A DNA stretch of 64,000 nt from an uncultured virus (IMG/VR IMGVR_UViG_3300009174_000005) (Duplodnaviria; Heunggongvirae; Uroviricota; Caudoviricetes). The notes below the pieces were generated by a model. It ran no database searches. It was not told where the DNA came from and worked only from the letters and a program-made list of their open reading frames with translations. The position numbers and the translations under genes are program-made. How positions within the stretch are numbered: the stretch's first letter is position 1; every line of letters starts with the position of its first letter. Shown here in pieces: positions 4,738-44,266 of the stretch. The stretch lies in IMG/VR virus record IMGVR_UViG_3300009174_000005; one strand, given 5' to 3'.

Positions 4738-5676
4738 ATGGGTCTAGTTAAATCAACCGCACCCGCTACGTTAGCACGTTCAACTGTAGACTATGCTACT
4801 AAACCCTCGCCTGAATCAATGTTTCCAGGCTCAGACTTCTACACGCTATCAGAACCTAAACTACAGACCAATTGCCTGATAGCTGGCGAGTCTGGTTGCG
4901 GTAAGACCTCATTCGTTACGTTATTCTGTCCTGCGCCCATCGCAATGATAAATTTTGACCGTCGCGCAAGCGATGCCGTATACCGCGCTGAACAATCTGG
5001 TAAACGCATTCTCTACGCGGATGTCGCCTATCCGCACAATGCAATGGAACTAGACGACAAAGAATCCATGCGCGTAGGCGAAGCGTGCGTAGGAAAAGTA
5101 GTGCGCAACCTAGAATACGCTGTTAAAGAATCTATAGCAGGTAATATCCGTACTATATGTCTGGACACTGGTACGGAATTAGGTGAGATTATCAACATGG
5201 CAACAGCAGGTCGTCCGGATAAGTCAAAATACGGCGATAGAGGCAAATCAAAAGATCTAGCAAATAGACAGTGGGGAGGGATTTACGATCTCGTGCGTGA
5301 TGGACTAGCACATTTTGTGGTTCTATCCAGAGCTAAGGAAATCTGGATAGACGATAAAGGCACAGGCAGATACACTTACAGAGGCTCGCCCGCGATGTTT
5401 GAAGGTGTTGAGTGGGCAGGTGTGCTGAAAGCAGAGAAAACATCTACACTGCGATTAGGTGGAGGACTGGTATTAGGGGGTGCAAATGCAACACCCGCAG
5501 ATGGAAAGATTGTTAGATCTATTCATATGATTAAAGCAGGTGTTAACGGCGGCGAATTAGGACAAACATACACAGAGGCACAGTGGGAAGGTTTCGGCGG
5601 GCCATTTGCGTTTTGCGCAATGATGCAATACATGGGCAGATTCCCTGGTAGCAGCCCAGAGGACTGGTTGAAATGA
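4738..5676 (+). CDS. AAA/RecA-like ATPase (Sak4-like recombinase)
   Basis: Walker A GESGCGKT; Walker B ICLDT; recombination-module context. Confidence 0.7.
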   Translation: MGLVKSTAPATLARSTVDYATKPSPESMFPGSDFYTLSEPKLQTNCLIAGESGCGKTSFVTLFCPAPIAMINFDRRASDAVYRAEQSGKRILYADVAYPHNAMELDDKESMRVGEACVGKVVRNLEYAVKESIAGNIRTICLDTGTELGEIINMATAGRPDKSKYGDRGKSKDLANRQWGGIYDLVRDGLAHFVVLSRAKEIWIDDKGTGRYTYRGSPAMFEGVEWAGVLKAEKTSTLRLGGGLVLGGANATPADGKIVRSIHMIKAGVNGGELGQTYTEAQWEGFGGPFAFCAMMQYMGRFPGSSPEDWLK

Positions 5677-6170
5677 TAATAACGAATGAAGACACAACAC
5701 ATTTATTCGATCCTAGTTTGCCCCCTATAACAGCCTTTAGAGATGAATTTAGATTCTTGTCTAACTTCTGGTCTGCTGAAGTAGACTGGTATAGCTGTGG
5801 TGCTAATCATACGTACTCTACCGTTGAACACGCATATCAAGCTGCTAAGACAGATGACGAAGCACAGCGAGAATTGATTCAATATGCTAATACCCCGGGG
5901 ATAGCTAAGAGAATAGGACGTACAGTGCATATACGCGAAGGGTGGGAAGAGCAAAAATTAGTTGTAATGAGTCTATTACTAATCCAAAAATTTCTTAACC
6001 ACGTAGAGCTAGGCAAGAAATTAAGTAATACAGGTAAGCGTTTACTGGTTGAAGGTAATACATGGGGGGACACTTTTTGGGGTGTAGACGTACGCACTGG
6101 AAAAGGGCAGAATAACCTAGGCGTATCTCTCATGGAAACTAGAATAGAGGTAGTACGATGCAAGTATTAG
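5673..6170 (+). CDS. NADAR family N-glycosidase (YbiA-like)
   Basis: FLSNFW, TVEHAYQAAK, LVEGNTWGDTFWGV, GQNNLG motifs. Confidence 0.92.
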   Translation: MIITNEDTTHLFDPSLPPITAFRDEFRFLSNFWSAEVDWYSCGANHTYSTVEHAYQAAKTDDEAQRELIQYANTPGIAKRIGRTVHIREGWEEQKLVVMSLLLIQKFLNHVELGKKLSNTGKRLLVEGNTWGDTFWGVDVRTGKGQNNLGVSLMETRIEVVRCKY

Positions 6171-7406: not shown

Positions 7407-8009
7407 ATGGCCGTTAAGAAGACTACTCCTGACGTTACAGAAGCGAGTGCTACCCCTGTCACTGCTGACCAAGGTTCCACCGTCCAGACTGCACACGTTG
7501 ACGCTGTAGACGCGTCCACCGCTACCCCTGCTACTGACACTCCTATCGTCCCTAAGCGTGGACGTGGACGTGCCAAGGGGTCTACCAACGACACCTTGAA
7601 GTGGTCTATGGAGATGAAGGCTGCACTCGCCACGCTGGTAGCTGGCAACCCGGGCGCTTTGTCAGCTTCAGACGTGGCAGCTAAGCTAGCAGACGATCCG
7701 GTATTCTCCTCTCTAGTTGTTCATAACACTGAGACTGGCGAGACTGACAGTCTGTTAACCAGTCAGCACGTTATCTCACAAGTTGCTAATCTTAATCGTC
7801 CTGCGCTAGTACGTGTCAAGGACGCTGCTGGAAAGTGGCAAATTAGCAAGGACGCAGATGGTAAGCCCGTAATCGAAGCCGAAGGTCTAGGGCTCGTACT
7901 GCTGAAGCCTGCCGGTAAGACTGCTGGAGCAAAGCCGTCGCGTGCTGCCATGCTTGAGGGGCTGCGTAAGATGCTAGGCAATAAGGCCGGTGAAGAGGTA
8001 GCAGCGTAA
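7407..8009 (+). CDS. putative DNA-binding protein (AT-hook-like plus HTH-like)
   Basis: KRGRGRAKGS motif; strong promoter and AAGGAAGG SD. Confidence 0.55.
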   Translation: MAVKKTTPDVTEASATPVTADQGSTVQTAHVDAVDASTATPATDTPIVPKRGRGRAKGSTNDTLKWSMEMKAALATLVAGNPGALSASDVAAKLADDPVFSSLVVHNTETGETDSLLTSQHVISQVANLNRPALVRVKDAAGKWQISKDADGKPVIEAEGLGLVLLKPAGKTAGAKPSRAAMLEGLRKMLGNKAGEEVAA

Positions 8010-8024
8010 GTTTAAACAATTAAA

Positions 8025-8107
8025 CGCAACGTGGCGAAATTGGTATACGCGATAGACTCAAAATCTATTCCTTTGGGTTAAGGGTTCGAATCCCTTCGTT
8101 GCGACCA
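8025..8107 (+). tRNA. tRNA-Leu (CAA)
   Basis: acceptor CGCAACG/CGTTGCG; anticodon arm ATAGA-CTCAAAA-TCTAT; GTTCGAATC T-loop; encoded CCA. Confidence 0.92.
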
Positions 8108-8121
8108 ATATACAGTGTTTG

Positions 8122-8280
8122 AAGCAACGTGATTACACAGCGGACAAGGTTAAGACAAGCTTACGATAAAGTACGCGGGAGACACAAAGACCATTCTAGG
8201 TGCCGTGTCGCTAATACCGTGAAATACGTAAGCCTAATTCTAGTAGGAAGGCGAGTGACTGACCAGTAATCACGTTGCTT
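8122..8280 (+). ncRNA. unassigned structured RNA candidate A
   Basis: 15-bp perfect closing stem plus nested stems; non-coding gap after tRNA-Leu. Confidence 0.6.
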
Positions 8281-8310
8281 TTATATTAACGAAAGAAAGG
8301 AACACAAGAA

Positions 8311-8928
8311 ATGGATGCTACCTATAGTTCAATCTTTGAAGCAATCTTAGCACGGGCTAGTGGCCTTATGTACGTTATTCCTAATCAAGGTGCACGTGGC
8401 TATCCTATGCCGTCTAACACATCAGACGAATACATCACTTCTACTCTGTATCATCAATTAGGCGCAATCGGCGGTGCTGTAGGAGAGCCGCAGTCAGATG
8501 ACCTAACCCTAGTGTTCGTACGACACCCGTCGAACCCTCTAGGCATTATCAACAATACTGAATATCCCAGAGTTACTACGCAAGACCATACAGCACTAGA
8601 GTATATGATTGTAAACGGCCGTCCTGCTTACCTGTCTGTTATTCGTGCAGGCAACGATGCTTTGAATCTCTCCCCTAATATCCACGTGACGCGTACTCCA
8701 GGCGCACCGGATGAAGGCCATATTAATGATCCTAACGCGGCCGCTGAAGCTGAGGGTAAGCTTGTAGCTGATTTGCTTAATATCATTACCCATCTGGGTG
8801 AGATGTCCACGCTACAAGCGGACGGGAGCGGTGGATGGGAACCTGTGAAGATTAATCAATCTGCACAGTGGCACGCGTTGAAAGTTGCACAGTATTTCAA
8901 GAATCCGTTTGACACGAGAGGTGATTAA
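8311..8928 (+). CDS. hypothetical protein
   Basis: 205 aa; AAAGGA SD; family not recognised. Confidence 0.7.
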   Translation: MDATYSSIFEAILARASGLMYVIPNQGARGYPMPSNTSDEYITSTLYHQLGAIGGAVGEPQSDDLTLVFVRHPSNPLGIINNTEYPRVTTQDHTALEYMIVNGRPAYLSVIRAGNDALNLSPNIHVTRTPGAPDEGHINDPNAAAEAEGKLVADLLNIITHLGEMSTLQADGSGGWEPVKINQSAQWHALKVAQYFKNPFDTRGD

Positions 8929-8932
8929 CGCT

Positions 8933-9142
8933 ATGTTACCAGGACTACAAATCGGACGAATTATCCATTACGTTAGCCCCTACAACAATGAACACCAAGC
9001 TGGTATTATCACAGGTACACACGGTGACACTAGCGAAGTTACTTTTACGCTGTTTGCTTCTGATGGTACGTACTCGGGTGAAACTGCTGTGTATGACGCT
9101 AATTGTGCAGTAGGAACGTGGCACTGGCCAGAGCGTTCGTAA
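8933..9142 (+). CDS. conserved small phage protein (GRIIHY...GTWHWPER type)
   Basis: motif common in phage small proteins; GAGGTG SD before ATG 8933. Confidence 0.7.
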   Translation: MLPGLQIGRIIHYVSPYNNEHQAGIITGTHGDTSEVTFTLFASDGTYSGETAVYDANCAVGTWHWPERS

Positions 9143-9151
9143 GGTTTATAG

Positions 9152-9229
9152 TCGCCCGTAGCTCAGCGGTAAGTCAGCGCCGATCTTATAAATCGGAGGT
9201 CGGTGGTTCAACTCCACCCGGGCGAACCA
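9152..9229 (+). tRNA. tRNA-Ile (UAU)
   Basis: acceptor TCGCCCG/CGGGCGA; anticodon arm CCGAT-CTTATAA-ATCGG; GTTCAACTC T-loop; discriminator A; CCA. Confidence 0.88.
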
Positions 9230-9238
9230 TAAATAAAA

Positions 9239-9489
9239 CAGAGTAAGTATGCAGGTTTAAATACCTTTCCATTTACTCTGTGTATTAGCTACGGCCGTTA
9301 GCGTTATTTGAAAAATAAGGTAGCAGGCTTATTTCAATCTGCCGGACGTAATTGAATATAAGTTAAGCTACCAACGGCAAGTTATGCATCCGGTATGCAT
9401 ACGAGTTACGCACGGGGAGAGACCACGGGACGACTGGCCTAGCTAGCTAGTTACTTGTGGTACCCGTGCGTTGCTATTTGTACCAAATA
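9239..9489 (+). ncRNA. unassigned structured RNA candidate B (three-way junction plus kissing loop)
   Basis: multiple nested complementary stems in a non-coding gap between tRNA-Ile and thyX. Confidence 0.6.
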
Positions 9490-9519
9490 TTTAACTCTTA
9501 ATGAAAGGCAGGCAGACCA

Positions 9520-10347
9520 TTGACTAGTGAACGCGTTACAATATTAGACCATGGGTACGTACAGCTGATAGAATCGTGGGGTAGTGACGAGCGGATTATT
9601 GAAGCGGCACGGATGAGCACAGGGAAAGGATTCTTGGGGTGGGGTCACGCTGTGGAGTGCAAAGAATGCAATGGGAAGGGTTGGCATCATGGAGACTGTC
9701 ACCCTAGAGAAACTTGCGGCGTATGTAATGGTGATAAATGGGTTAAAACAACTGGAGACGAAAAACTCCTCCGTTATCTCTACGAACACAAACACGCTAC
9801 ACCCTTTGAAATGGCAGGTTTAATAATAGAAGTACAAGCACCTATCTTTGTCTTCCGTGAGTGGCATAGACATCGTACGCAATCATATAATGAAATGAGT
9901 GCACGCTATGCCCCGCTACCTGACCTCAATTACATTCCTACTGTAGAACGTCTACTTATCAATAGCAAGTCAAACAAGCAAGCCGGAACGATTAAAGGCG
10001 CTGAGGAGCTTACCGAAGAGAAGGCACTCGTTTTTCGAGCCGCGCTATCATCAATCTATGACTACCAGGAGAAAGTATATCAAACCGCTCTATCTATGGG
10101 CGTCCCAAAAGAACTAGCCCGTATCCACTTACCTGTAGGTCGCTACTCCCGTATGCGTGCTTCTGCCAACCTTCGCAATTGGCTTGCATTTCTAACTCTA
10201 CGCATGGATTCAGCTGCACAGTGGGAAATCCGCCAATACGCTAATCAAGTAGGTGTAATCATATCTCAATTATTCCCTCGCACGTGGGAGTTATTAGATG
10301 ACAGTGTCAATCATCCCACCTGTTATACAAGACTTGCAAAAGGCTAA
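9520..10347 (+). CDS. thyX: FAD-dependent thymidylate synthase with zinc-finger insertion
   Basis: HATPFE, REWHRHR, SYNEMSARY, LRMDSAAQWEIR motifs. Confidence 0.95.
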   Translation: MTSERVTILDHGYVQLIESWGSDERIIEAARMSTGKGFLGWGHAVECKECNGKGWHHGDCHPRETCGVCNGDKWVKTTGDEKLLRYLYEHKHATPFEMAGLIIEVQAPIFVFREWHRHRTQSYNEMSARYAPLPDLNYIPTVERLLINSKSNKQAGTIKGAEELTEEKALVFRAALSSIYDYQEKVYQTALSMGVPKELARIHLPVGRYSRMRASANLRNWLAFLTLRMDSAAQWEIRQYANQVGVIISQLFPRTWELLDDSVNHPTCYTRLAKG

Positions 10348-10398
10348 ATGGTATATCGAACGTGAGATCGAACGATTGGAAAGGTAGACACGTGTAAC

Positions 10399-10602
10399 AT
10401 GGAAGTGTACAAATCAGGTACCCGTGTTAAAGTCAACGGTGACACATTTGCAACTGTAGTAGGCCACTGGCTAGAGTACGATACCTTGCAATATCGTGTA
10501 GTATGGTGGCACAACGGCGAACGCAAGCTAGAGTGGGTATACGATTGTGAGATTGACGAATTAGACCACACAGAGCGAATTGATCTAGGGTTCCGTGTAT
10601 GA
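10399..10602 (+). CDS. small SH3-like hypothetical protein
   Basis: AAGGT SD; ATGA overlap with polymerase. Confidence 0.6.
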   Translation: MEVYKSGTRVKVNGDTFATVVGHWLEYDTLQYRVVWWHNGERKLEWVYDCEIDELDHTERIDLGFRV

Positions 10603-13406
10603 ACGTAGTCTACGGCGCAGGTCACCTCCCTAACGATGTATTCTTAATAGGTGAAGCCCCTGGAGCACAAGAATTCAAAGAGGGAGAACCTTTCGTAGGT
10701 CGTTCCGGTCGCGAGCAAGACACCTACCTATCTAGATTCAACCTACGCACTAGACAATTCTACCGTACTAACTTGTGCAAAGAGTACATAGCAGGGAATC
10801 CAGATCCTACGCCAGAGCAAATTGACTATTGGCAGTCTGAATTATTCGATGAACTTTGCAAATGTCAGCCTAAAATAATCATAGCTGTAGGTCGATACGC
10901 CGCTAGGTACTTTCTAGGAGATTCAACTCTTCTAGATATTGTGCACGGACTACCACATATTGTTTCTCCCTCGTGTCCTGCCGCTAGTTATCTACGCTCT
11001 GATTGCATCATATTACCTATCTTCCACCCTGCTGGAGGATTTTACGACTCAGACGCTAGAGCTGTAATCGCGTGGGATTATGAACAGGTAGCCTATTACA
11101 CTGATCTTATAAAACGTTCTATCTCTATCACACCACGCACAGACCCATTTCTAGGAATAGAAGATTACCGCGAGATCTCACCTTATGATCTAGGTGACGT
11201 GCTACCGCTAGATTCTACACATTTCGCCATTGATACAGAAGGTACTCCCAGCGATCCTTTCAGTCTGCAAGTCTCCTGTGCACCTGGTACCGGCTACACT
11301 TTATTATACGATCATGTAGACTTCTCCATCGCTATAGCTTATTTACAATGCCTAGTAGATAACGGTTGCATAGTAATCTTCCACAATGGCCTATACGATA
11401 TCGAGATGTTGCGCGTAATGGGTTTAAACCTACGCCGCGCAAAGTTCATTGATACCATGTACATGTTATACCTGTTACGTATAGAGCCACAAGGTTTAAA
11501 AGAAGCTGCATACCGCTGGTGTAATATTCGCATGACATCACACAAGGAGACAATAGAACCATTAGGTACTAAACGTCAAATTGAATACCTGCAAGCTGTA
11601 ATCGATCGCTCGGCAGAATGGCCTATCCCTCCGCCTAGAATAGTTATTCAGAACGATGGCACCCCCAAGGTTAAAAAACCTAAGCATGTATCATCACGTG
11701 CTGCCTACACTCTCCGCAATTTCTTGGCTGGTAAAGTAGATAACAAAGGCCGGCCTACCGATCTAGTTAAGTGGTGGAATAATAAAGTATCTAGAGAATT
11801 ACGTAGGCCAGTAGAGCAAGCACTAGGTAAGATTCCATACGGATCTATCAGAGCACTGTACGCTGTAGACGCTAAAGCAGCTATTGACTATTCCTCTAGA
11901 GACCCTGATGCTACCTTACGCTTATACCTACGACTGTCAGACGAGCTATCGCGCCGTGGGCTATCTACTCCTGGCAAACGTCTAACAGATTTACTCTCTA
12001 CAGGTATGGAAGTACTACCAGTATTCGAAGAGATGCAATCTACGGGCATGCCGTGTGATTTATCCCGTTTGCATTCATTAGGCGAAGAGATGCAATCAGG
12101 TATGTACCGTATAGGATCTGAATTATCATTTAAATACTTTGACAATAAACCGTTCAACCCTAATTCGCCCAAACAAACACAGTCTCTATTAAAAAAACGC
12201 GGCTTAGAAGGATCGCAGTTAACCCCTAGCGGCGAGATGTCTACAGGCAAGAAATCAATTGAAGGGTTGCGATTCGTCGACCCTGCTATTGCGTCATTAT
12301 TTGATTGGCGAGAGCACTCACACACCAAAACAGCGTTTATCAATCCTGTATTTGCGTCGTTACCTTATGAATATGCAGGCAATACATCTGATACTGACAC
12401 GGACACTGACACAGACGACGATGATACAGACGCAAACGATACAGAAGATATTTCAATTATACCAGCTGAGTTACAACCGTCTAATCTATGGCGTGTTAGG
12501 TGTCAGATTAAAAACACTCGCACGGCTACCAGACGTCCGGCGGCAGAAGCACCTAATCTATTAGCGCAACCCAAGCATAGCGTATATGGTCGTAAATTAC
12601 GTGCATGTTACAGAGCGCCAAAAGGTAAGATTTTATACGCAGCTGACTATTCGCAGATTGAAGCTAGACTATTAGCCCATGAAACCGCTGATCCATTCTT
12701 GTGTGAACTATTCAACACTCGCGGTGCAGACGGTAAGCCTCGTGACATACACACTGAAACCGCTTCTATTATATTCGGCGTACCTCTAGACCAAGTTGAC
12801 AAAGACACACAACGTACACCAGCCAAACGCGCGTGCTTTGGAATCATCTATGGTATAGGCGGTAGATCCCTATACGATCAATTGCGTATGATGGGGATTC
12901 AAGGCTGGAGCGTAGACAGGTGCAATGAACTAATATACGAGTGGCTGAAACTTTATAAAGGTGTCGATTCATACATTAGGCGTGTATCCAGTAACGTACG
13001 TAGACGTTCAAACGTTCCGCCAAATGAAGACGGGTATGCAACGGTATATGATTGTTGGGGTATGCCTAGGTCTTTACCCGGCATATGGAGTGAAGATGCT
13101 AAAATAGCCGCTGAAGCTGGGCGTCATGCTGTATCTCACAAGATTCAAGGTGGCGCACAAGGAATGATTCAAAACGCTATGTCTGCTTTAAAGTATGACG
13201 TGTTAGATTGGCAGGACTATAACATGGATATTCAATGGTTGATTGAAATTCACGATGAACTTGATTTTGAAATGGACGAGGATATACTGCCCATTGTCGA
13301 GCCTGTGATACTGCACAAGATGAAAACGTGTCATGGGATGAATAACATGCGAGTGCCTGTAGAAGTGGAAGGTAAGGCCAGTATAACGTGGGGTGGGAAG
13401 GAGTAG
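10599..13406 (+). CDS. polA: family A DNA polymerase with N-terminal uracil-DNA-glycosylase domain and 3'-5' exonuclease
   Basis: UDG GEAPG..E...FVGRSG and HPA; exo DTE, HNGLYD, YSSRD; pol motifs ADYSQIEAR, KRACFGIIYG, IHDEL. Confidence 0.93.
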   Translation: MNVVYGAGHLPNDVFLIGEAPGAQEFKEGEPFVGRSGREQDTYLSRFNLRTRQFYRTNLCKEYIAGNPDPTPEQIDYWQSELFDELCKCQPKIIIAVGRYAARYFLGDSTLLDIVHGLPHIVSPSCPAASYLRSDCIILPIFHPAGGFYDSDARAVIAWDYEQVAYYTDLIKRSISITPRTDPFLGIEDYREISPYDLGDVLPLDSTHFAIDTEGTPSDPFSLQVSCAPGTGYTLLYDHVDFSIAIAYLQCLVDNGCIVIFHNGLYDIEMLRVMGLNLRRAKFIDTMYMLYLLRIEPQGLKEAAYRWCNIRMTSHKETIEPLGTKRQIEYLQAVIDRSAEWPIPPPRIVIQNDGTPKVKKPKHVSSRAAYTLRNFLAGKVDNKGRPTDLVKWWNNKVSRELRRPVEQALGKIPYGSIRALYAVDAKAAIDYSSRDPDATLRLYLRLSDELSRRGLSTPGKRLTDLLSTGMEVLPVFEEMQSTGMPCDLSRLHSLGEEMQSGMYRIGSELSFKYFDNKPFNPNSPKQTQSLLKKRGLEGSQLTPSGEMSTGKKSIEGLRFVDPAIASLFDWREHSHTKTAFINPVFASLPYEYAGNTSDTDTDTDTDDDDTDANDTEDISIIPAELQPSNLWRVRCQIKNTRTATRRPAAEAPNLLAQPKHSVYGRKLRACYRAPKGKILYAADYSQIEARLLAHETADPFLCELFNTRGADGKPRDIHTETASIIFGVPLDQVDKDTQRTPAKRACFGIIYGIGGRSLYDQLRMMGIQGWSVDRCNELIYEWLKLYKGVDSYIRRVSSNVRRRSNVPPNEDGYATVYDCWGMPRSLPGIWSEDAKIAAEAGRHAVSHKIQGGAQGMIQNAMSALKYDVLDWQDYNMDIQWLIEIHDELDFEMDEDILPIVEPVILHKMKTCHGMNNMRVPVEVEGKASITWGGKE

Positions 13407-13615
13407 ACTCTATAATGAGAAGATATGAAATAGACGTTGCTTCAGGTCCTATAAGTGCATCAGACATGAAAGTCGAACAAGACTTGTCATATATTTCAGA
13501 TGTTGAGTTATTACGTGCATATAGAGCTAAAGGTGTGTTCGATTTTGAACACTGTCTAGTTATTATTTGCGAGATGTCTAAACGGTGGGCAGACGAGCGC
13601 AAAGATTGCACTTGA
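13388..13615 (+). CDS. hypothetical protein
   Basis: shares SDxELL..Y...E...RW with 25356..25586; start probably ATG 13415. Confidence 0.55.
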   Translation: MGWEGVDSIMRRYEIDVASGPISASDMKVEQDLSYISDVELLRAYRAKGVFDFEHCLVIICEMSKRWADERKDCT

Positions 13616-13641
13616 CACGCTGCACGAATCTCCCATATACT
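13612..13641 (+). promoter_or_regulatory. sigma70-type promoter
   Basis: TTGACA-N18-TATACT. Confidence 0.65.
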
Positions 13642-13705
13642 AATGACGGTTCAAGAGAAGCGGACTGCTACACTACTTCATACAGGAGATACGCCGATGC
13701 AACGT

Positions 13706-13730
13706 GCCCCCAGAAAGTGGGGGCTTTCCT
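13706..13730 (+). terminator. intrinsic terminator
   Basis: GCCCCCA-GAAAG-TGGGGGC followed by TTT. Confidence 0.65.
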
Positions 13731-13819
13731 GTTTACACTCTCATATGTATACTTAAGTCTGGTAACTTACGCCCCATTTTCACCTTTGTAAAGCCTTACC
13801 TCTGTCTCTCTCACATCCC

Positions 13820-13848
13820 TTGACACGTGCTTACATCTGCCGTACTAT
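13820..13848 (+). promoter_or_regulatory. sigma70-type promoter (phage family)
   Basis: TTGACA-N17-TACTAT; upstream GTAACTTACGCC box at 13762. Confidence 0.8.
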
Positions 13849-13875
13849 ACGAGCATAACAAGGGAGAGACGCTCA

Positions 13876-14037
13876 ATGATTAACCTAGGTAATGCAATCG
13901 ACCGTGCTGAGCTTAAGCACTTGCAAGGGTTGCGCTATGATCTCGTAAATGGACGCCAACCCAATCAAAACGATGTAGTACGTGAAATGCTCATTAAAGC
14001 TGTTAACGACGCTATCCAAAAGAAGGTTACAGGCTGA
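13876..14037 (+). CDS. small hypothetical protein (53 aa)
   Basis: MINLGNAIDRAELKHL...; AAGGGAG SD after promoter. Confidence 0.6.
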   Translation: MINLGNAIDRAELKHLQGLRYDLVNGRQPNQNDVVREMLIKAVNDAIQKKVTG

Positions 14038-14042
14038 GAAAA

Positions 14043-14231
14043 ATGAAGAAAAAGACAGTAGAGAAGCTTCGTTTATCCTTAGAAACACTGTGTAGTCTCG
14101 ATATAGTTGACATGGCAGTCTACGGTGGCGTGGAGCCCGATCCCGGTACACCACCAAGCCGTGTTACTGCATACTGTCCAGACCAAACAAATACTGCTAC
14201 ACCGTCAACACCGGGTTGGGGGTATTGCTAA
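14043..14231 (+). CDS. lanthipeptide/RiPP precursor-like peptide
   Basis: leader MKKKTVEKLRLSLETLCSLD...VYGG; 33-aa core with 8 Ser/Thr and 2 Cys. Confidence 0.7.
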   Translation: MKKKTVEKLRLSLETLCSLDIVDMAVYGGVEPDPGTPPSRVTAYCPDQTNTATPSTPGWGYC

Positions 14232-14300
14232 AAACAGCAGTCTGTTTTTATCCGCTAGTATCTGCTAAAACTAGTCAACTTAATGAAAGGAAAAGAAAAG

Positions 14301-14651
14301 ATGAAACGATTTGCTATGCTCTTTGTTCTTTTGGTAGTGCTTACTTGGATCTCGCCATCACCTTCCTACGCTGCCTGCCAAGGTGGCTGGCAACCGCAGT
14401 GCACCAGCACGCCCGGCTACAACAACTGCTTTAACTACGCTTCTTCCGATTATAGCCACTGCCGTAGTCTTTGCTACAGTGATTATTGTTACGACAACGT
14501 ATACTGTGGACCTGGCGGCGGATACGTCTACACTTTGTGTGTTTCGCAATGCGACACGGAAAAAGCATGCGACCAAGACAACTGCCGACAGCGGTATTGC
14601 GAAATCGGATGCAGTCCAGCTGACCCCAACTGGCCTAGCTGCGGCTACTAA
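14301..14651 (+). CDS. secreted 14-Cys mini-protein
   Basis: signal peptide MKRFAMLFVLLVVLTWISPSPSYA; 14 Cys in mature part. Confidence 0.75.
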   Translation: MKRFAMLFVLLVVLTWISPSPSYAACQGGWQPQCTSTPGYNNCFNYASSDYSHCRSLCYSDYCYDNVYCGPGGGYVYTLCVSQCDTEKACDQDNCRQRYCEIGCSPADPNWPSCGY

Positions 14652-14662
14652 CGCTCACTATA

Positions 14663-14684
14663 GGGCCGGGTAGCTTCACGGCCC
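14663..14684 (+). terminator. GC-rich hairpin closing the peptide cassette
   Basis: GGGCCG/CGGCCC; no clear U-tract. Confidence 0.4.
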
Positions 14685-14711
14685 ACCAGTTAAACAAAAG
14701 AAAGGCACAAA

Positions 14712-15143
14712 TTGATTAAGCGACCCGCAGCTAATAAATTAGCGACAGCACTTTCTATCCCTGCGCCTAGTACACCTGTTGCAATCGACCGCGTAACTAC
14801 ACTAGCTGAAATTCCCGACGATGGAATCCGCGAGCTATTCTCTAGCCTTTGCACAGTGTACCTGTCCCTATCAGCTGAAAAGAAACTAGCTGAAAATCGC
14901 CGCGTTACACTCATGCAGGAACAAATCAAACCTACTGCCGAGTTGTACGGCTACAGTAAGATCACAGATGATGCATTTACTCTATACCGTGTTAAAGGCA
15001 AAGCAGGTGCCAAGAAAATCTCAGAACGCAAGCTACTAGAATTAGGTGTTAAACCTGAAGTAATTGCACTAGCTACAGAATACGGTAAGCAAGGAGAATC
15101 GTATTACGTGGTTAGAGGTAAGGATGACGAGGGGGAGGATTGA
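14712..15143 (+). CDS. hypothetical protein
   Basis: AAAGG SD; TTG start. Confidence 0.65.
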   Translation: MIKRPAANKLATALSIPAPSTPVAIDRVTTLAEIPDDGIRELFSSLCTVYLSLSAEKKLAENRRVTLMQEQIKPTAELYGYSKITDDAFTLYRVKGKAGAKKISERKLLELGVKPEVIALATEYGKQGESYYVVRGKDDEGED

Positions 15144-15447
15144 TATGGACATGCTGTATGAATATGATAACTGGGAATCAGGACTTAGCACAGCAAATGA
15201 GTATAGGGGTGATCCTTATATCTCTATTGCTGCTAAGTTGTTTAACGTTTCTATTGAATCTGTAACACCTGCACAACGTAAAGCAGCTAAAGTAGCCGCG
15301 TTTACGTCGAGATCTACAAGTTTAAGAAGTTTAAGCAAAACACACATAGGTGTTGACTTTGGCGCGGGTGTTTCTGAGACGGTAGAACTCAAGTACTCAC
15401 CTAATGAACCTTTATACTCTCTTGGCGCTGAAAACCGTTTACCCTAG
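15124..15447 (+). CDS. mini-protein resembling the PolA fingers (motif B) helices
   Basis: DPYISIAAKLFNVSIESVTPAQRKAAKVAAF. Confidence 0.6.
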   Translation: MTRGRIDMDMLYEYDNWESGLSTANEYRGDPYISIAAKLFNVSIESVTPAQRKAAKVAAFTSRSTSLRSLSKTHIGVDFGAGVSETVELKYSPNEPLYSLGAENRLP

Positions 15448-15814
15448 TCCATTAGTTACTCAACTTCAGAAAGGTACCTATCCTATGCAATTTCGTCCAT
15501 TGAATGTGTTAGAGCGTACAGCTATCCAGTCGGCTACTAAAAAGAACAAACTAGACCGCGAAGATTTACGCTTTCTATGGCAATCTAGATTACGTGTAAG
15601 TTATGAGAGACAATCCGGTGGATTTACTATTTGCATTATTGTACTAACTATCAATACGTTAGTTGCTTGTTCTTCGCTTATGAATTTGTCAGCTACCATG
15701 TTATACCGTGGCGTCTCCCGTAAATCTCGTAATGATGCTTGGAATTCAACTCGCGGCGATATGCTTGCATTCAATCGTGCACTGCAATCTAAAGGAGTTG
15801 AATTACCACTATGA
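15404..15814 (+). CDS. hypothetical phage protein
   Basis: GGFTIC...GVSRKSRNDAWNSTRGDMLAFNRAL; start probably ATG near 15485. Confidence 0.6.
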   Translation: MNLYTLLALKTVYPSPLVTQLQKGTYPMQFRPLNVLERTAIQSATKKNKLDREDLRFLWQSRLRVSYERQSGGFTICIIVLTINTLVACSSLMNLSATMLYRGVSRKSRNDAWNSTRGDMLAFNRALQSKGVELPL

Positions 15815-15983
15815 AATTAACGATGCCGTTATCCCTAAGATTAGCACTCGAAGAATTTGCAGAGAAAGACAACGACACTGTTATAGAAGCTGTGGAATGG
15901 TTAGATGGATCAACCACGTCTATAGATGAGTTAATATTTGTACTTACTCCAGAAGAATACAGAGAGGATTAGACAAAAGTGAC

Positions 15984-16613
15984 ATGGTCGACTCTTTTAC
16001 CACACAATTTGACCGTTCCACCTTAACCCCGGGGCAACGTTCTGCCTTAGATGCACTATTAACTCGCGACTTAAACGAAGATCTAGCATCAGTAGCTAAA
16101 CGTGCACGTGTGTCCCTTGCTACCCTGCAAAAGTACACCAGAGATCCGGTATTTGCTCGTCAATTGCGTCTCGCTGTAGAAGCTGATTTAGGATCTCAAC
16201 GTGCGGCTGTGACAGCTACATTGATAGCAGGCGCGCTAGATTCTGATAACAAAGATCACCTAGGCTATGTAAAGGAATATTTCAAACGTCTAGACGGTGA
16301 GTCAATAACAGTTAACATAGACGATAGCCGACAATCCGACCCTGCCGCTAGTTTCCCGTATCACTTGCTTTCTGTATCAACTCGCAAGTTAATAGTTGCA
16401 GAGATCAAACAAGCAATCGAGCAAGGTAAAGCTGATAAACTACTAGAGGGAGACATTCTAGAAGCTGAATTCGAAGTAGTGCAACATGGACTAGAACCTG
16501 CTATAGTGCAGCCTGTAATAGCTACTATTGCACCTATACCAGGGCCATGGTTAGGGCGTACATGGGATCAATTAACAGAAGATGATTTACAGGAGCCGCA
16601 AGGTAATGAGTGA
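15984..16613 (+). CDS. HTH protein, probable terminase small subunit (phBC6A51-like HTH)
   Basis: LTPGQRSALDAL...VAKRARVSLATLQKYTRDPVF. Confidence 0.55.
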   Translation: MVDSFTTQFDRSTLTPGQRSALDALLTRDLNEDLASVAKRARVSLATLQKYTRDPVFARQLRLAVEADLGSQRAAVTATLIAGALDSDNKDHLGYVKEYFKRLDGESITVNIDDSRQSDPAASFPYHLLSVSTRKLIVAEIKQAIEQGKADKLLEGDILEAEFEVVQHGLEPAIVQPVIATIAPIPGPWLGRTWDQLTEDDLQEPQGNE

Positions 16614-16920
16614 AACCAAGTATTCAATGATGAGGTTTACGCCATTTGCATACCACAAAAACTACAGAGTACGTGATCTAGCAGAAGACGGCGACGCATT
16701 TAGAGAACAAGCACACAAGTGGCCCGCATTCCGCCACGAGATGGAAACTGAATTCTTGACAAGCGTAGTAGGTTGCTTATACTATATTTGTGACTACGTA
16801 GACTTGCGTTTAGACCACGGCAGTGATGAAGCTGAAGCACACGACCGCATTATGAGTATCCTGTCTTCGCCGCATGTACAACGTTTTGTAAAGGACGGCT
16901 CATGGCTTCCAATGGCGTAG
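16582..16920 (+). CDS. hypothetical protein
   Basis: operon packing. Confidence 0.55.
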   Translation: MIYRSRKVMSETKYSMMRFTPFAYHKNYRVRDLAEDGDAFREQAHKWPAFRHEMETEFLTSVVGCLYYICDYVDLRLDHGSDEAEAHDRIMSILSSPHVQRFVKDGSWLPMA

Positions 16921-17183
16921 TAACAAAAGTAACAATAACTATTTCCGCTGATCTAGCGGATACAATTGCCGATTACCTCTCCCATGAGGGATTTACAATC
17001 GAAGCAAACGAAATCAACACCTTATCAATAGAAGCCCGTACTAAAGCCGCGCTGCAACGTCACAATGTTATACCTATCTTGTGGCAGTGTTCCTGCGGCG
17101 ATACTACAGGGTTACAAGACGACGATGTTACGTGTGCTACCTGTCACACTGGATTGATTAAATCAGCTCTTAACAAAGGATAA
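16902..17183 (+). CDS. zinc-ribbon protein
   Basis: CSCG...CATC. Confidence 0.6.
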   Translation: MASNGVVTKVTITISADLADTIADYLSHEGFTIEANEINTLSIEARTKAALQRHNVIPILWQCSCGDTTGLQDDDVTCATCHTGLIKSALNKG

Positions 17184-17190
17184 CGTAATC

Positions 17191-17340
17191 ATGAGTGAAT
17201 TCTACTCCCACAAACGCATATGTGGTAAGCCTGGCATACGTGCTGTGGTAGAGTTTCTATCTTTTAGCTTTCTACTATACTTAGGACAGATTTTCTTGAA
17301 TTAATTTATTGTACCTTTAGAAAGCAAAGAAAGTAGATGA
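17191..17340 (+). pseudogene. small membrane ORF interrupted by TAA
   Basis: AAGGA SD; TAA at 17302; frame continues to a TGA overlapping ATG 17337. Confidence 0.4.
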
Positions 17341-17717
17341 AAATATCAATCGATCTCAACGGCACTTTCTATTACAAGCCCGAATTCTTCCAATGGTTTG
17401 CGTCTGCAATGCAATTAGCAGGCCACACAGTAGGAATCTTAACAGGACATAACGCTACCAGTGAAACACACGACAGAGTAAAACTTGCTAGATTATTTTA
17501 TTTTTACCCTGATTTCTATTTAGGCCGCACAGAAGAGTATCTACCATTTAATGGCGCAAAGTTCAAGTGTGACATGATACGTAAGCATTCTATAGATATT
17601 CACTTTGATGATATGGATTATGACAACCCTGACACTGTACACATTTTCAATGAAAATCTTGACGTATTATCTAAAGTATTTACAGTTAATTGTGTAACCA
17701 AAAAGGATGTAATTTAA
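17337..17717 (+). CDS. HAD-superfamily hydrolase-like protein
   Basis: ISIDLNGT, ILTG, K, IHFDD motifs. Confidence 0.7.
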   Translation: MKISIDLNGTFYYKPEFFQWFASAMQLAGHTVGILTGHNATSETHDRVKLARLFYFYPDFYLGRTEEYLPFNGAKFKCDMIRKHSIDIHFDDMDYDNPDTVHIFNENLDVLSKVFTVNCVTKKDVI

Positions 17718-17849
17718 TTATGAAAATTAGAGACAAACGTTTAAAACTTACCAAGTCTCAACGGCTAATATGTGTGTTATACCACACTTCCCTTTCGCCC
17801 ATAAACCTGATACAATGTCCAGATAACCAGCGGGAGGGGTACAGGTGCT

Positions 17850-18851
17850 ATGCCTCTAGTAAAGTCAAATGTGTTACCGTTTGCAGCGAGCAATAATCAA
17901 TCTGACAATAGCGACGTAGACGATGGAAGTGTAAACTATCAAAATCACTTTGAATCAACCATAGATGAAATAAACCAATCAACTAATTACTCTTTACCTG
18001 CTAAACCTTTATCCCCGCTGATTAGATCACCTGCACCGTTGCAATCTGCCGCACCTACACTCTCGGCTGTTATACCTGCTACACCTCTTGCCGCTAGTAC
18101 TCTAGTACGCACTCCTACAAAACGTAAGCGCGGTAAACGCATACAAAACGAAGATACACATGTAAACATTAAACCTTTAAACCATTCACACACTGCATCA
18201 TTCGACCCTGAAGAATTCCGCGATACATTCGACATTATAAACGAATTAACTTGCCGACGCGATCTCTACTGTTCTGATAGATCAGATATACCTACAACCA
18301 TTTACAATGTACCTTCCTACCTTCGCATCATTCTAAATCGCCTTTCCGCTCGTGTACCTGTCCTACCTAAACCTACGCTATCTGTAACCGCGTGTTGCAC
18401 TCTTGCACGTGGGCTAGAAATTCTATCAGATATCCCCTGCCTACAAGATAATTTAGAAATTCAAGATAGATTCGATTTCGTCGATTGGCTTCCTGTAGAC
18501 TATCTAGACCAAATATCCACATGGTTCAAGACATTTCCATTCAAAATCAACACATTCGGTGGCGGCGAAGAACCTAAGCTACAATTACGATTCTTACCTT
18601 CACAAGTTTCAACGTTAGCAAGTTTAAAAAACAAAATAGGCATCCCTATGTCACCTATTGCAATTACAGCTATGCAGTTTGCCTTGTTAGAAGTAGACTG
18701 CATATCTGAATACCACCCTCGTTTATCCGAATCTACCTTAGTGTTCAAATCGGCACTGGCAATACGCTCTGACATGTCAGATGTTTTAATGTCTGCATTG
18801 CATTCTGAGATGGTAGACGAGGTTAAGCCTGTGCAATCTACAGAGGAGTAG
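17850..18851 (+). CDS. hypothetical protein
   Basis: 333 aa; GGAGGGG upstream; extended -10 TGATACAAT at 17808. Confidence 0.7.
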   Translation: MPLVKSNVLPFAASNNQSDNSDVDDGSVNYQNHFESTIDEINQSTNYSLPAKPLSPLIRSPAPLQSAAPTLSAVIPATPLAASTLVRTPTKRKRGKRIQNEDTHVNIKPLNHSHTASFDPEEFRDTFDIINELTCRRDLYCSDRSDIPTTIYNVPSYLRIILNRLSARVPVLPKPTLSVTACCTLARGLEILSDIPCLQDNLEIQDRFDFVDWLPVDYLDQISTWFKTFPFKINTFGGGEEPKLQLRFLPSQVSTLASLKNKIGIPMSPIAITAMQFALLEVDCISEYHPRLSESTLVFKSALAIRSDMSDVLMSALHSEMVDEVKPVQSTEE

Positions 18852-18856
18852 TTAAA

Positions 18857-19873
18857 ATGCCTGGCACTGCCCACCCTGAGCAAATATACTCTGACATCTT
18901 ATCCGCTCATTACTCGGGATCTAAAATAGCCCATTCGGCTAATTTCTTCACCCCGCCATCAATCGCACACGTGCTAGACGGTTTAGGCTCTATCAATATC
19001 CCTCAGATACAATTACTCTGTTGCTTGCATTATGGCACACCTGCCAATATCAAATTAGCGCGTCAAGCGTTTATCACTCTATGCCATACTGAAGAGTCAG
19101 CTTTCATGTTTACCGAATTACTGTCACCCATATACGGCACCTGGCATCTAGCAGCTAAAGCAGGTGCAGCCGCGTGGGCGTTAACCAATAATGACAGAGA
19201 ATTGTATAATACGCTCGAATCATGGTTACATAATTACTTCGCTCTGCACAGTATGTTATGCACTCCAGACTTTAACCGTATCGTAGCACCAGGCTTGCGC
19301 GCTGGCGGACACACAGCAGACGCTCGCATATGGGATTCGTGGATCTACGCGCACGCATCTAGTAATCAATCTTCAACTAGTGGCACAGTGCAGTGGGAAG
19401 CACGCGGGCGACAGGCTAAATTAGGTATGAAGCAATCTTGGCTATGGGCTCTATTCCACGATCCAATTGTAACTACAGTATTACGCGATTCATTCGCTAA
19501 TGTATCATCGTCTATGTTATTTACGTCTTCCCTGTGGAAGCCTCTAGAGATCGTACGCCGTGCAGTTGTAGACGAATCCGGTAAGATGTTAGAGCTAGCC
19601 GTGTGGCTAGAAGGTGGCAACCCAAACGGTAATACAACCGCGTGGGGTGCTCAAGTATGGCGTGTACAGTCATTACGTACAACAGACGAGGAACATACTA
19701 CAGACGTTCTGACTATGCCTGCTAATGGTGGCCATCGCATCCGTCAACAAGCAGAGCAAATGACAATGACGTATTACCCGCCCACACGTACATTAAGTTA
19801 CCACTCTAACCTGCAAGAATCTACGTATGTAACCCTGACAGAAGGTGGTGAGATAATAACTCGTATAAGTTAG
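18857..19873 (+). CDS. hypothetical protein
   Basis: 338 aa; GAGGAG SD; Trp-rich. Confidence 0.7.
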   Translation: MPGTAHPEQIYSDILSAHYSGSKIAHSANFFTPPSIAHVLDGLGSINIPQIQLLCCLHYGTPANIKLARQAFITLCHTEESAFMFTELLSPIYGTWHLAAKAGAAAWALTNNDRELYNTLESWLHNYFALHSMLCTPDFNRIVAPGLRAGGHTADARIWDSWIYAHASSNQSSTSGTVQWEARGRQAKLGMKQSWLWALFHDPIVTTVLRDSFANVSSSMLFTSSLWKPLEIVRRAVVDESGKMLELAVWLEGGNPNGNTTAWGAQVWRVQSLRTTDEEHTTDVLTMPANGGHRIRQQAEQMTMTYYPPTRTLSYHSNLQESTYVTLTEGGEIITRIS

Positions 19874-19895
19874 CGTGTAGACTTGTAACAATTTA

Positions 19896-19922
19896 AGGGG
19901 TTAGCCAAACCCCTATTTGTTA
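19896..19922 (+). terminator. intrinsic terminator
   Basis: AGGGGTT/AACCCCT followed by ATTTGTT. Confidence 0.55.
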
Positions 19923-19926
19923 CCTC

Positions 19927-19978
19927 GTAACTTCCGCCTTACTTGCCCCTTGACAAGGTAGATTGCGTGCCGTAAGAT
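19927..19978 (+). promoter_or_regulatory. sigma70-type leaderless promoter
   Basis: GTAACTTCCGCC box; TTGACA(19950)-N17-TAAGAT; ATG 6 nt later. Confidence 0.85.
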
Positions 19979-19984
19979 ACGACC

Positions 19985-20191
19985 ATGAAAACCGAATGGA
20001 CTTCTGCTTACAACGTTCACAAGCGCCAGATTGGGCACTTTACCGCTACGGTTTGTTGGGAATCTGGGCAGTTTATTGGCTATTTCGCTAACACTCGGCT
20101 AAAGACCCGTTATGATGATCTAGACAGCTGTAAAGCTGCTGTCCTCAAACTGGCCAAGTCTGTTCTTCTCCGTGCACTGGAGACATTATGA
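19985..20191 (+). CDS. hypothetical early protein
   Basis: leaderless start after promoter. Confidence 0.7.
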   Translation: MKTEWTSAYNVHKRQIGHFTATVCWESGQFIGYFANTRLKTRYDDLDSCKAAVLKLAKSVLLRALETL

Positions 20192-30924: not shown

Positions 30925-32403
30925 CTGTCTTCCTTCTCTTCTCTATCTTTATACTCTATCGACTCTGCTATCGAAGCGGATAGTCTACCTGACTTTATAC
31001 GCTCAGCGTGGCCTATCATCGAACCTTCTACACCTTTACAATGGAATTGGCATCTAGATGTACTATGCGAAGTTTTGACAGGTATATCTAACGGTACTCT
31101 ACCAGATCATTGGATTATAAACATACCGCCTGGATTTTCTAAATCGACTATTGTCAGCGTGCTATGGCCTGCGTGGGAGTGGGCTACCAAACCTTACTTA
31201 CGGTATCTATTCTTCTCCTACACAGATGCTAACACAATCCGCGATAACGTTAAAGCCCGCAGCATTATAGAATCTGCCTGGTATCAAGATTCATTCTGGT
31301 CTAAGCTTACTCCACCCGTACGTCTATCTAAAGATCAAAACGTTAAAATTAAATTTGAAAACACCAGCAAGGGGTATAGATTTGCCTCTAGCGTAGGTGG
31401 TACTGGTACTGGTGAACACCCTCATCGCATTATTACAGACGACTTGCTTAAAGCCAAAGACGCTACAAGCAAAGTATTCCGCAAAGCTGCAAATGATTTC
31501 ATAGATCAGACTCTCACCACACGCGTGCGTTTAAACCCTGCTGTCATACACGTAGGGCAACGGTTACACGAAGACGACCCTACAGGGCATCTATTAAAGC
31601 AAGGCGACGGGTACCAGCTACTACGTCTACCCATGCGGTACGAGACCGCTAGAACGCTCCCTGATGGCACACTGTACACTCCCGATCCTAGAGACCCGCG
31701 CACATATCCAGGTGAGCTTATGTGGCCTGCTGTGTATCCCGAATCAAAAGTACGTGCACTAGAGATATCTCTTAATCCATATGGTACTGCTGGTCAATTG
31801 CAACAGCGGCCGGTACCTTTGGCAGGTGGATTATTCAAACGTGAGTACTTCTCTCGATTTGTCGACGTCGCGCCTGTGCAAGCTAATAGGTGTCGCGGGT
31901 GGGATACAGCAGCGTCAGAAGCGCACGGCGATCACACCGCGTGTGTTAAACTAGCAATTACAAACGAGGGTATCATATACATAGAGCACGCTTACAGAGA
32001 TCAAATCAGCCCATTCAACGTCGATAAAGTGATGCACCAATACGCAGAGACAGACGGGCGATATTGCAGAATACGGGAAGAACGCGAACCGGGATCATCT
32101 GGAATCACGGTTGTAACACTGCGATCTAGATCATTTATAGGCTATGATTATGCATGGGTTGCAATCGACAGTGACAAGGTATCTAGGTCGAATGCATTCC
32201 GTGCACAGTGTGAAGCCGGTAATGTGGTAATAGTACGTGACTCGGCTAACTATAGATGGAACGAAGCTTACATAAACGCATTGTGTAATTTCATGGGCGA
32301 TGATGAAGACGACGACGATTACGTAGACGCATCTAGTTGTGCGTTCAACTCACTAGGACTAGAGCCTAGGGCAGGAATGTTTTGGGGGAGAGATAAGACA
32401 TGA
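30925..32403 (+). CDS. terL: terminase large subunit
   Basis: DFIRSAWPIIEP...NWH, INIPPGFSKST, IITDD, QRLHEDD, QLQQRP, RGWDTA, DDDDYVDA; start uncertain. Confidence 0.92.
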   Translation: MSSFSSLSLYSIDSAIEADSLPDFIRSAWPIIEPSTPLQWNWHLDVLCEVLTGISNGTLPDHWIINIPPGFSKSTIVSVLWPAWEWATKPYLRYLFFSYTDANTIRDNVKARSIIESAWYQDSFWSKLTPPVRLSKDQNVKIKFENTSKGYRFASSVGGTGTGEHPHRIITDDLLKAKDATSKVFRKAANDFIDQTLTTRVRLNPAVIHVGQRLHEDDPTGHLLKQGDGYQLLRLPMRYETARTLPDGTLYTPDPRDPRTYPGELMWPAVYPESKVRALEISLNPYGTAGQLQQRPVPLAGGLFKREYFSRFVDVAPVQANRCRGWDTAASEAHGDHTACVKLAITNEGIIYIEHAYRDQISPFNVDKVMHQYAETDGRYCRIREEREPGSSGITVVTLRSRSFIGYDYAWVAIDSDKVSRSNAFRAQCEAGNVVIVRDSANYRWNEAYINALCNFMGDDEDDDDYVDASSCAFNSLGLEPRAGMFWGRDKT

Positions 32404-44033: not shown

Positions 44034-44266
44034 AAATAAATGTGCTAATCAACGCTCTACAAAGATTAGACGAAAACGAAGAAATAACAGTAATGGGGTG
44101 TGATGTATACGGGTGTGATGTTGATGACTCGTGCAACTTAGCTTTAGTGTCTAGAAAACAAGACGGTAGTTTGATATTGCGCGGTCTTGACTGGCCGCTA
44201 GACAAATTAAGTGAAAAACCTAAAGAATCGTATGAAGACTTAATCATACTAGGTGGTGGTGTGTAA
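44030..44266 (+). CDS. small hypothetical protein
   Basis: ATGA and TAATG coupling on both sides. Confidence 0.55.
   Translation: MKINVLINALQRLDENEEITVMGCDVYGCDVDDSCNLALVSRKQDGSLILRGLDWPLDKLSEKPKESYEDLIILGGGV

Follow-up and report, generated by a model that had tools for sequence, protein, structure and literature searches.

We analysed a 64,000-nucleotide stretch of DNA (hereafter the window) from an uncultured tailed phage, IMG/VR record IMGVR_UViG_3300009174_000005, and centre on one of its small genes, at 14043..14231 (+), which may specify a precursor of the lanthipeptide type, that is, of a peptide made on the ribosome and modified after translation (RiPP). The gene is the second of three small ones that follow the DNA polymerase gene of the phage. 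It has an ATG start and 62 codons for 62 residues, and re-checking returned exactly the open reading frame (ORF) and translation given by an earlier, sequence-only reading of this DNA. The features which that reading had singled out are all present: a basic MKKK start, the series K8-L-x-L-x-x-E-T-L-x-x-L19, the pair G28-G29, and a core of 33 residues with six Thr, two Ser and two Cys, one of the latter C-terminal. The two Cys are C45 and C62, and the core further holds seven Pro, absent from the earlier description. Residues 1-29 form the leader part (14043..14129, +), which ends in Gly28-Gly29 and aligns with real leaders of the LxLxKx5L...GG type; the core part and the stop codon take up 14130..14231 (+). 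Codon usage in the annotated frame scores 0.121, above the five other frames and within what the other small ORFs of the phage show; in a control, no off-frame window reached this value and 8% of true-gene windows fell below it. The G+C content at third codon positions (GC3) is 0.40, against 0.38-0.41 for phage genes; by this measure the gene is not a recent foreign insert, and has therefore either been long resident or come from a host of similar composition. The motif KLxLxxET[LI] is present once in the six frames of the window, where 0.03 occurrences are expected from 30 shuffles, and Lx3[DE][LM]x1-3[LIVM]xG[GAS] also once, against 0.73 expected from shuffles. Among 645 window ORFs, only that of the peptide combines all ten invariant columns of the precursor family described below, N-terminally placed, with a family-typical length and a terminal Cys. 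A chance open frame between real genes might be suspected from the weak ribosome-binding site and from the want of a homologue in any search; yet the frame has the best codon usage of the six, typical of the small genes of this phage, its ATG is packed tightly, 5 nucleotides past the preceding stop, and pattern counts, profile scores and shuffles alike make such a family-like architecture improbable by chance, so that we hold this explanation to be extremely improbable. That 14043..14231 is a real small phage gene forms part of the reading we favour, to which we give about an even chance.

Class I lanthipeptide precursors (LanAs) that carry an LxLxKx5L motif come mainly from Bacteroidetes; many of their leaders end in Gly-Gly, a C39 protease is often encoded in their clusters, and the pinensin family is named among them (Walker et al. 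2020, PMC7268733; this and most of the literature below is cited from parts of the sources). Our reference set for this family was chosen without reference to the window peptide, by a search of 301 Actinomycetota genomes with NF038153 (lant_leader_L1a), a curated leader model whose cut-off is 22 bits. Two of the genomes (G137 and G004) had matches above that cut-off, and the loci of these matches contained six distinct small precursor genes. At all three loci concerned the precursors have a LANC_like gene (134-140 bits) as their immediate neighbour, and 902-residue C39 ABC exporters are encoded on other contigs of both genomes; the reference members are therefore taken as genuine LanA genes. 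In G137, two tandem precursors with different cores (locus L018, 1281-1677, +) stand directly upstream of LanC, with the C39 exporter on another contig; a subtilase gene lies nearby, and crude ORF calls gave no Lant_dehydr_N within 10 kb of the precursors. Aligned with the six members, the window peptide has every column that is invariant among them (M1, K8, L9, L11, E14, T15, L16, L19, G28 and G29), and in the family alignment its C45 and C62 each match a Cys column that hardly varies. With composition correction off, BLASTP aligns 57 of its residues to a G137 member at 37% identity (E 1e-4). A profile built from the six members places the peptide first among 2141 ORFs from the window and 13 related phages, with 21.5 bits (E 2e-5) at full length, the next ORF scoring 8.0 bits; for the leader by itself the score is 9.2 bits (E 0.12). 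An 11-member profile, six bacterial and five viral (the latter described below), gives 28.0 bits (E 2e-7) at full length and 14.5 bits (E 0.0024) for the leader, where members left out one at a time score 21-88 and 17-49 bits, respectively. Shuffling the whole peptide yielded at most 10.2 bits in 1000 trials.

The glycine pair of the window peptide sits 8 residues past L19, whereas the members fetched with NF038153 have 9. A metagenome scan with the spacing of the peptide (8 residues from L19 to GG) found at least 120 stretches. The DNA of 80 loci was examined and held 86 pattern matches, of which 45 stood N-terminally in ORFs no longer than 110 residues; 38 were kept as members, three reductase-like N-termini and four chance matches being dropped. 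As these members share the 8-residue spacing, the shorter leader of the window peptide is natural in the family. The cores of the 38 members listed hold from 1 to 11 Cys (two or fewer in four of them), and about half of the aligned members have no third Gly after GG. A feature search of the ESM Atlas ranked class I lanthipeptide leader clusters first, at 0.86 for the whole peptide and 0.76 for residues 1-30; both scores are under the bar of the tool and serve as a lead only. Searches for closer relatives returned none. A peptide word-index search of a 5.8-billion-cluster index found only the peptide itself, IMG/VR yielded 45 stretches matching the pattern and no relative of the peptide among them, and tblastn against GenBank phages and plasmids gave chance matches only (E>=1). 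In bacterial genomes, two tblastn matches in GC-rich actinomycete DNA were rejected as artefacts, since they fall within unrelated ORFs or in another frame than these.

Genes of this type recur on other phages. IMG/VR was searched with two strict back-translated patterns, and the phage-borne count is thus a lower bound. The canonical-spacing pattern matched five stretches, in three of which it marks the N-terminus of a small ORF whose tail is rich in Cys; the pattern with the window spacing matched ten, one of them plausible. With NF038153, one of those genomes yielded a further member (22.9 bits), while another member scored 17.2 bits. Another 21 IMG/VR stretches matched a leader pattern, none of them passing a tblastn filter. 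Four unrelated phage records carry five genes that fit the family more clearly than the window peptide does: G305 (97 kb, CheckV 100%), where a peptide gene adjoins the terminase; G306 (53 kb, CheckV 100%), with terminase, sheath, baseplate and tape measure; G307 (61.7 kb with terminal repeats, CheckV 100%), with terminase, primase/helicase and head protein; and G304, a 26 kb fragment of 45.3% G+C with terminase, Erf and DnaB. A leader profile made from metagenome members only, run over the 4287 stop-to-stop frames of the four records, singled out these five peptides alone, at 16.1-32.8 bits, with no other frame below E 0.1; on this profile the window peptide scores 20.8 bits. The four share neither polymerase nor terminase with the window. 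Their six frames hold no LANC_like or Peptidase_C39, and the search for Lant_dehydr_N was also empty, with its control silent. A search of GenBank phages by tblastn with the G304 peptide gave no match. In G305, two different LanA-like genes stand 43 kb apart (L161, 2231-2515, -; L163, 5273-5572, -), one of them adjoining the terminase and a gene for a TROVE/Ro60-like RNA-binding protein. Phage genomes of the sort that the sequence-only reading had proposed to look for, in which leaders are related, cores vary and none of the maturases sought is present, do exist, and the presence of similar genes on four unrelated phages suggests that phages may use the peptide-making machinery of their hosts.

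The window phage itself brings none of this machinery. As claimed earlier for the Lan genes, no LanB, LanC or LanM, radical-SAM, YcaO, C39 or ABC family is found by Pfam among the 97 ORFs of the window. A near-identical IMG/VR record, G001 (59.6 kb), was searched in six frames: it holds no LanC, no Peptidase_C39 (with a working control) and no LanB, though the LanB control was silent. A complete maturase cluster elsewhere in the phage, which had been named as the finding that would reduce the gene to part of an ordinary captured cluster, is likewise absent from the six frames of G001, with the same silent control for LanB.

Several observations weigh against identifying the peptide as a lanthipeptide-type precursor. 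Four of the six reference precursors, part of the alignment and two of the three LanC adjacencies come from the unpublished genome G004; the G137 sequences show the same features. The strict LxLxKx5L motif is incomplete, the peptide having L9-x-L11-x-L13-x5-L19, with three of the four fixed positions and the right spacing; it departs from the members by Leu13 in place of Lys/Arg, Cys17 in place of the Arg after ETL and Glu7 in place of Lys. With eight Ser/Thr and only two Cys, amid its many prolines, the core is a minimal fit for (methyl)lanthionine rings. On the 38-member leader profile its 20.8 bits compare with 36-57 for the members (a self-inclusive range), and a score as high is reached in ~5% of trials by decoys in which the pattern residues are left in place (p about 0.05). 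When only the core is shuffled, the median score is 23.8 bits and the 95th percentile 28.4, where the peptide itself has 28.0; the residue order of the core, with the shared CPD and TxTP, thus adds nothing, and its composition alone contributes. Most family members found are of 60-70% G+C, against 44.7% for the window (the fragment G304 is close to the latter). A phmmer search of 1.84 billion protein representatives returned the peptide itself and one spurious 1110-residue repeat protein, rejected because its six repeats inflate a short chance match. NCBIfam (NF038153 included), Pfam (in a copy without PF28317) and PHROGs do not report the peptide at E<=10, and NF038153 has no match in the six frames of G001, so that the peptide fails the curated cut-off. 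The sequence-only reading had named a lack of similarity to leader hidden Markov models as a result that would refute it, and on that standard the outcome here, no match at E<=10, would do so; the silence of NF038153 carries less weight, since this model also missed the G304 member and the probable G307 member. Nor does comparison among phages help the case: at 13 polA-related phage loci there is no homologue of the peptide, and G001, identical to the window across 12543-15728, offers no variation by which selection could be gauged. Finally, Pfam reports no integrase family among the 97 window ORFs, and an exported peptide would be of no obvious benefit to a lytic phage. To this list belongs the weak ribosome-binding site mentioned above.

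Much of this would suit an ordinary intracellular phage protein, made of an amphipathic N-terminal helix and a disordered Pro/Thr-rich tail and acting in host takeover or in some other role, whose likeness to the leaders is convergent or due to chance. The peptide is one ORFan among many ORFan early genes, its ESM Atlas model shows disorder (pLDDT 0.36), the curated leader models are all silent on it, and the independent leader-only score, the conditional decoys and the insignificant core order are all in keeping with such a protein. It would leave unexplained the ten invariant columns joined to a family-typical length and a terminal Cys, a combination seen in one of 645 window ORFs, as well as full-length profile matches of E 2e-5 to 2e-7 in 2141 ORFs, with shuffles never above 10.2 bits; we regard it as unlikely. 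The lanthipeptide-precursor identity proposed by the sequence-only reading thus stands in part: the peptide aligns with real members and comes top of the profiles, but the curated model is silent, the Lys/Arg is absent and the score is below those of the members. As both the curated cut-off and the strict motif fail, we count the peptide not among the members but as a divergent relative. We favour, midway between doubt and acceptance and on the strength of sequence comparison, a divergent double-glycine-leader precursor of the LxLxKx5L...GG LanA type, whether by descent or convergence, that depends on its host.

For leaders ending in a double glycine, the recognition consensus of C39 exporters is L(-12)x3E(-8)L(-7) with a hydrophobic residue at -4 before GG (PMC6363468). 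In the peptide, V at -4 fits, and a block L-x3-D-M is present at -11/-7/-6, one residue nearer to GG than in the consensus, a further mark on the unfavourable side; family members themselves vary at these positions. A complex prediction of the peptide with the C39 domain of the G137 exporter, run without controls, gave no answer either way, at a score of 0.01 against a mark of 0.32. Double-glycine leaders serve many unmodified peptides too (PMC6363468, PMC7268733), and this opens a second account, in which the product, like a class II bacteriocin or pheromone, is cut and exported by a C39 exporter of the host, with one C45-C62 disulphide loop and no lanthionine. A proline-rich core with two Cys only would suit it, and the Cys-rich, apparently secreted product of the next gene suggests an oxidising destination; against this, the leader resembles the type found beside LanC genes, no class II bacteriocin leader model reports the peptide, and the exporter consensus positions are out of register. 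We consider an unmodified peptide of this sort improbable.

The peptide gene was said to be the second after a promoter at 13820, and this order holds if the promoter is read as a consensus match: a sigma-70-like site, TTGACA-17-TACTAT, lies at 13820..13848 (+) with 10 of 12 matches. Such sites barely exceed shuffles (34 in 8000-20000 against 23.7 +/- 4.7, a slight enrichment), so that it is not to be counted as a demonstrated element. The first gene of the cassette, at 13876..14037 (+), encodes a 53-residue ORFan with a good Shine-Dalgarno site (AAGGGAGAG) and the best codon usage of six frames; its stop sits 5 nucleotides before the ATG of the peptide, and no family in Pfam, NCBIfam or PHROGs matches it. 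Overlapping the stop codon of the peptide gene, at 14227..14255 (+), is a weak A/U-rich hairpin followed by a U-rich stretch, a possible attenuator or terminator. Its energy is -7.1 kcal/mol (z -1.99), 9 of 200 shuffles are equally stable, and the terminator scan did not call it. The third gene, at 14301..14651 (+), encodes a 116-residue ORFan whose first 24 residues, ending in SYA, resemble a Sec-type signal as judged from sequence alone, followed by 92 residues with 14 Cys. Searches returned no homologue of it, Pfam, NCBIfam and PHROGs assign it to no family, and BLASTP shows no significant similarity between it and the peptide (best E 0.14); with it the cassette may specify a second product that is secreted. 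The 13 polA-related loci hold no homologue of the 53-residue or the Cys-rich ORF either. In these IMG/VR relatives the slot after polA is variable, and only the gene at 14712-15143 has weak counterparts; the slot 13407-14711 is hypervariable, each of the 13 having different small ORFs, often Cys-rich or zinc-finger-like. Since the genes of 13876-14651 are without counterpart in these relatives, the peptide gene is part of an accessory cassette of three genes that is peculiar to this phage. Among promoter-like sites in the region the best one, TTGACA-18-TATACT with 11 of 12 matches, falls in 13612-13724 (+), and about 65 nucleotides downstream of this promoter, in the gap after polA, is a G+C-rich terminator-like hairpin (-15.3 kcal/mol). 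A short transcript could arise there; no Rfam match falls on it, and an Rfam scan of 13300-14800 gave nothing meaningful (a single match, E 0.89).

The source is a phage of ~70 kb, and the sole sequencing run listed as containing it, a DNA run and possibly its source, is a rhizosphere metagenome. The window, of 44.7% G+C, encodes a large terminase (31075-32403), a portal (33276-35306) and a major head protein (37650-38636), besides ThyX and an ORF of 2083 residues, the size of a tape measure. Upstream of the cassette, at 10599-13406 (+), stands a fusion of a uracil-DNA-glycosylase-like domain, a 3'-5' exonuclease and a family A polymerase (PolA), into which an acidic stretch of Asp/Thr repeats is inserted. 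This fusion is characteristic of a large clade of metagenomic phages of 60-76 kb (302 proteins at E<=1e-20), many of which have a polymerase 37-47% identical to that of the window. Cultured relatives are distant, with terL at most 36% identical (Erythrobacter and Rhizobium phages) and polA and portal below 31%. Two tRNA genes, tRNA-Leu(CAA) at 8025-8107 (+) and tRNA-Ile(TAT) at 9152-9229 (+), precede the polymerase, and the replication module has, next to a Sak4-like annealing protein and a nuclease of ERCC4-like type, a NADAR-domain protein (88 bits; 5673-6170, +). Two glycosyltransferase-like genes lie within the head-tail module (43374-45453, +): a weak glucosyltransferase PHROG match at 43374-44033 (+) and a GT4/Glyco_trans_1_4 gene at 44266-45453 (+). 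Their products may add sugars to the virion or to a structure on the host surface. A glycocin-like reading of the peptide, prompted by its C-terminal Cys and by these transferases, was dropped, the latter being of GT4 type and 30 kb away among structural genes. A Shine-Dalgarno core precedes 36 of 50 gene starts, where random windows have one in 9.6% of cases, and TTGACA -35 boxes occur in the best promoter matches. Taken with general knowledge of translation and promoters in Bacteroidota, these two signals make a host from that phylum unlikely.

How might a phage use such a gene? We suggest that the precursor would be carried as cargo of the accessory cassette, free of any modification or export gene of its own. 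Host RNA polymerase would transcribe it from the host-type promoter, and translation would be coupled to the upstream ORF. The amphipathic N-terminal leader could then be recognised by a host LanB dehydratase and LanC cyclase, after which a host C39-peptidase ABC exporter would cut behind Gly29 and export the product, a phage-specified peptide of 33 residues bearing either one disulphide or as many as two (methyl)lanthionine rings, perhaps with a role in competition, exclusion or signalling. That host enzymes actually process the peptide is, at the level of the sequence, doubtful. The wider proposition that phages repeatedly feed a core peptide of their own into the lanthipeptide assembly and export line of the host, or else jam that line, is put forward with similar reserve. 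Jamming would make the leader a decoy, which occupies sites on host LanB/LanC or on the exporter and blocks a host lanthipeptide, possibly a defensive one. Anti-phage class I lanthipeptide clusters have indeed been described in Actinobacteria (bioRxiv 10.1101/2024.06.26.600839, PMC12360287), the gene lies in the early region behind a host-type promoter, and the peptide has kept the hydrophobic skeleton of the leader while losing basic residues and most Cys. However, nothing ties this leader type to the defensive clade, for which the parts of the reports cited here describe a core motif, TXDXCXXXCXXXC, and no leader, and the other phage-borne members have full, Cys-rich cores, like real substrates. 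A decoy is therefore, in our view, very improbable.

Should the precursor reading be correct, the auxiliary gene of a phage would be a substrate instead of an enzyme, a new kind of host exploitation; the infected cell would secrete a modified peptide specified by the phage, or have a peptide of its own silenced, and phages would form a hidden, mobile source of lanthipeptide diversity. RiPP precursors are usually studied alongside their enzymes, and one metagenome RiPP study discarded viral contigs before analysis (PMC11118758). In the literature searched, as far as the cited parts go, the RiPP genes described from phages make up complete bacteriocin clusters of prophages; our full-text search found no report of phage-encoded, maturase-less lanthipeptide-type precursors, of which supplements might list cases. 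The nearest relatives of the peptide in anatomy are the LxLxKx5L...GG class I precursors (PMC7268733; NF038153/PF28317), with which it shares the MKK start, the K-L-x-L-x-x-E-T-L-x-x-L skeleton, the distance to Gly-Gly, a length of 50-90 residues, a Ser/Thr/Cys core and the C-terminal Cys column. Unlike them, it has Leu for Lys/Arg, a score below the cut-off, two Cys and a Pro-rich core, and is encoded by a phage with no LanB, LanC or C39 nearby. Among phages, the SPbeta prophage of Bacillus subtilis carries the whole sublancin cluster (sunA, sunS, sunT, bdbA/B and sunI), and the same source finds biosynthetic gene clusters extremely rare in virion-derived genomes and those of prophages to be nearly all bacteriocin clusters (bioRxiv 10.1101/2020.10.01.322628). 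Sublancin is thus likewise a phage-borne RiPP precursor; its cluster includes the exporter sunT, whereas the window phage carries the precursor only. The "lanthiphages" (bioRxiv 10.1101/2024.06.26.600839) similarly bring class I lanthipeptide chemistry into the conflict between phage and host, yet they are host-encoded, intracellular and restricted to Actinobacteria, have the TXDXCXXXCXXXC core, and show, in the part of that report cited, no link to the peptide or its leader. SPbeta-like phages also encode quorum-sensing signals (PMC12360287). These signalling peptides are, as the product of the window gene would be, small, secreted and phage-specified, and bear no sequence relation to it. They are the arbitrium peptides (AimP), which are exported in a Sec-dependent manner and not by a double-glycine leader. 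Prochlorosins offer a bacterial parallel, dispersed precursors being served there by a single ProcM. Orphan RiPP precursors are common in bacterial genomes and matured in trans (PMC11953309), and the phage peptide resembles them in that its gene lies far from any maturase; it differs in that two genomes would be involved, the enzymes being those of the host and the substrate that of the phage.

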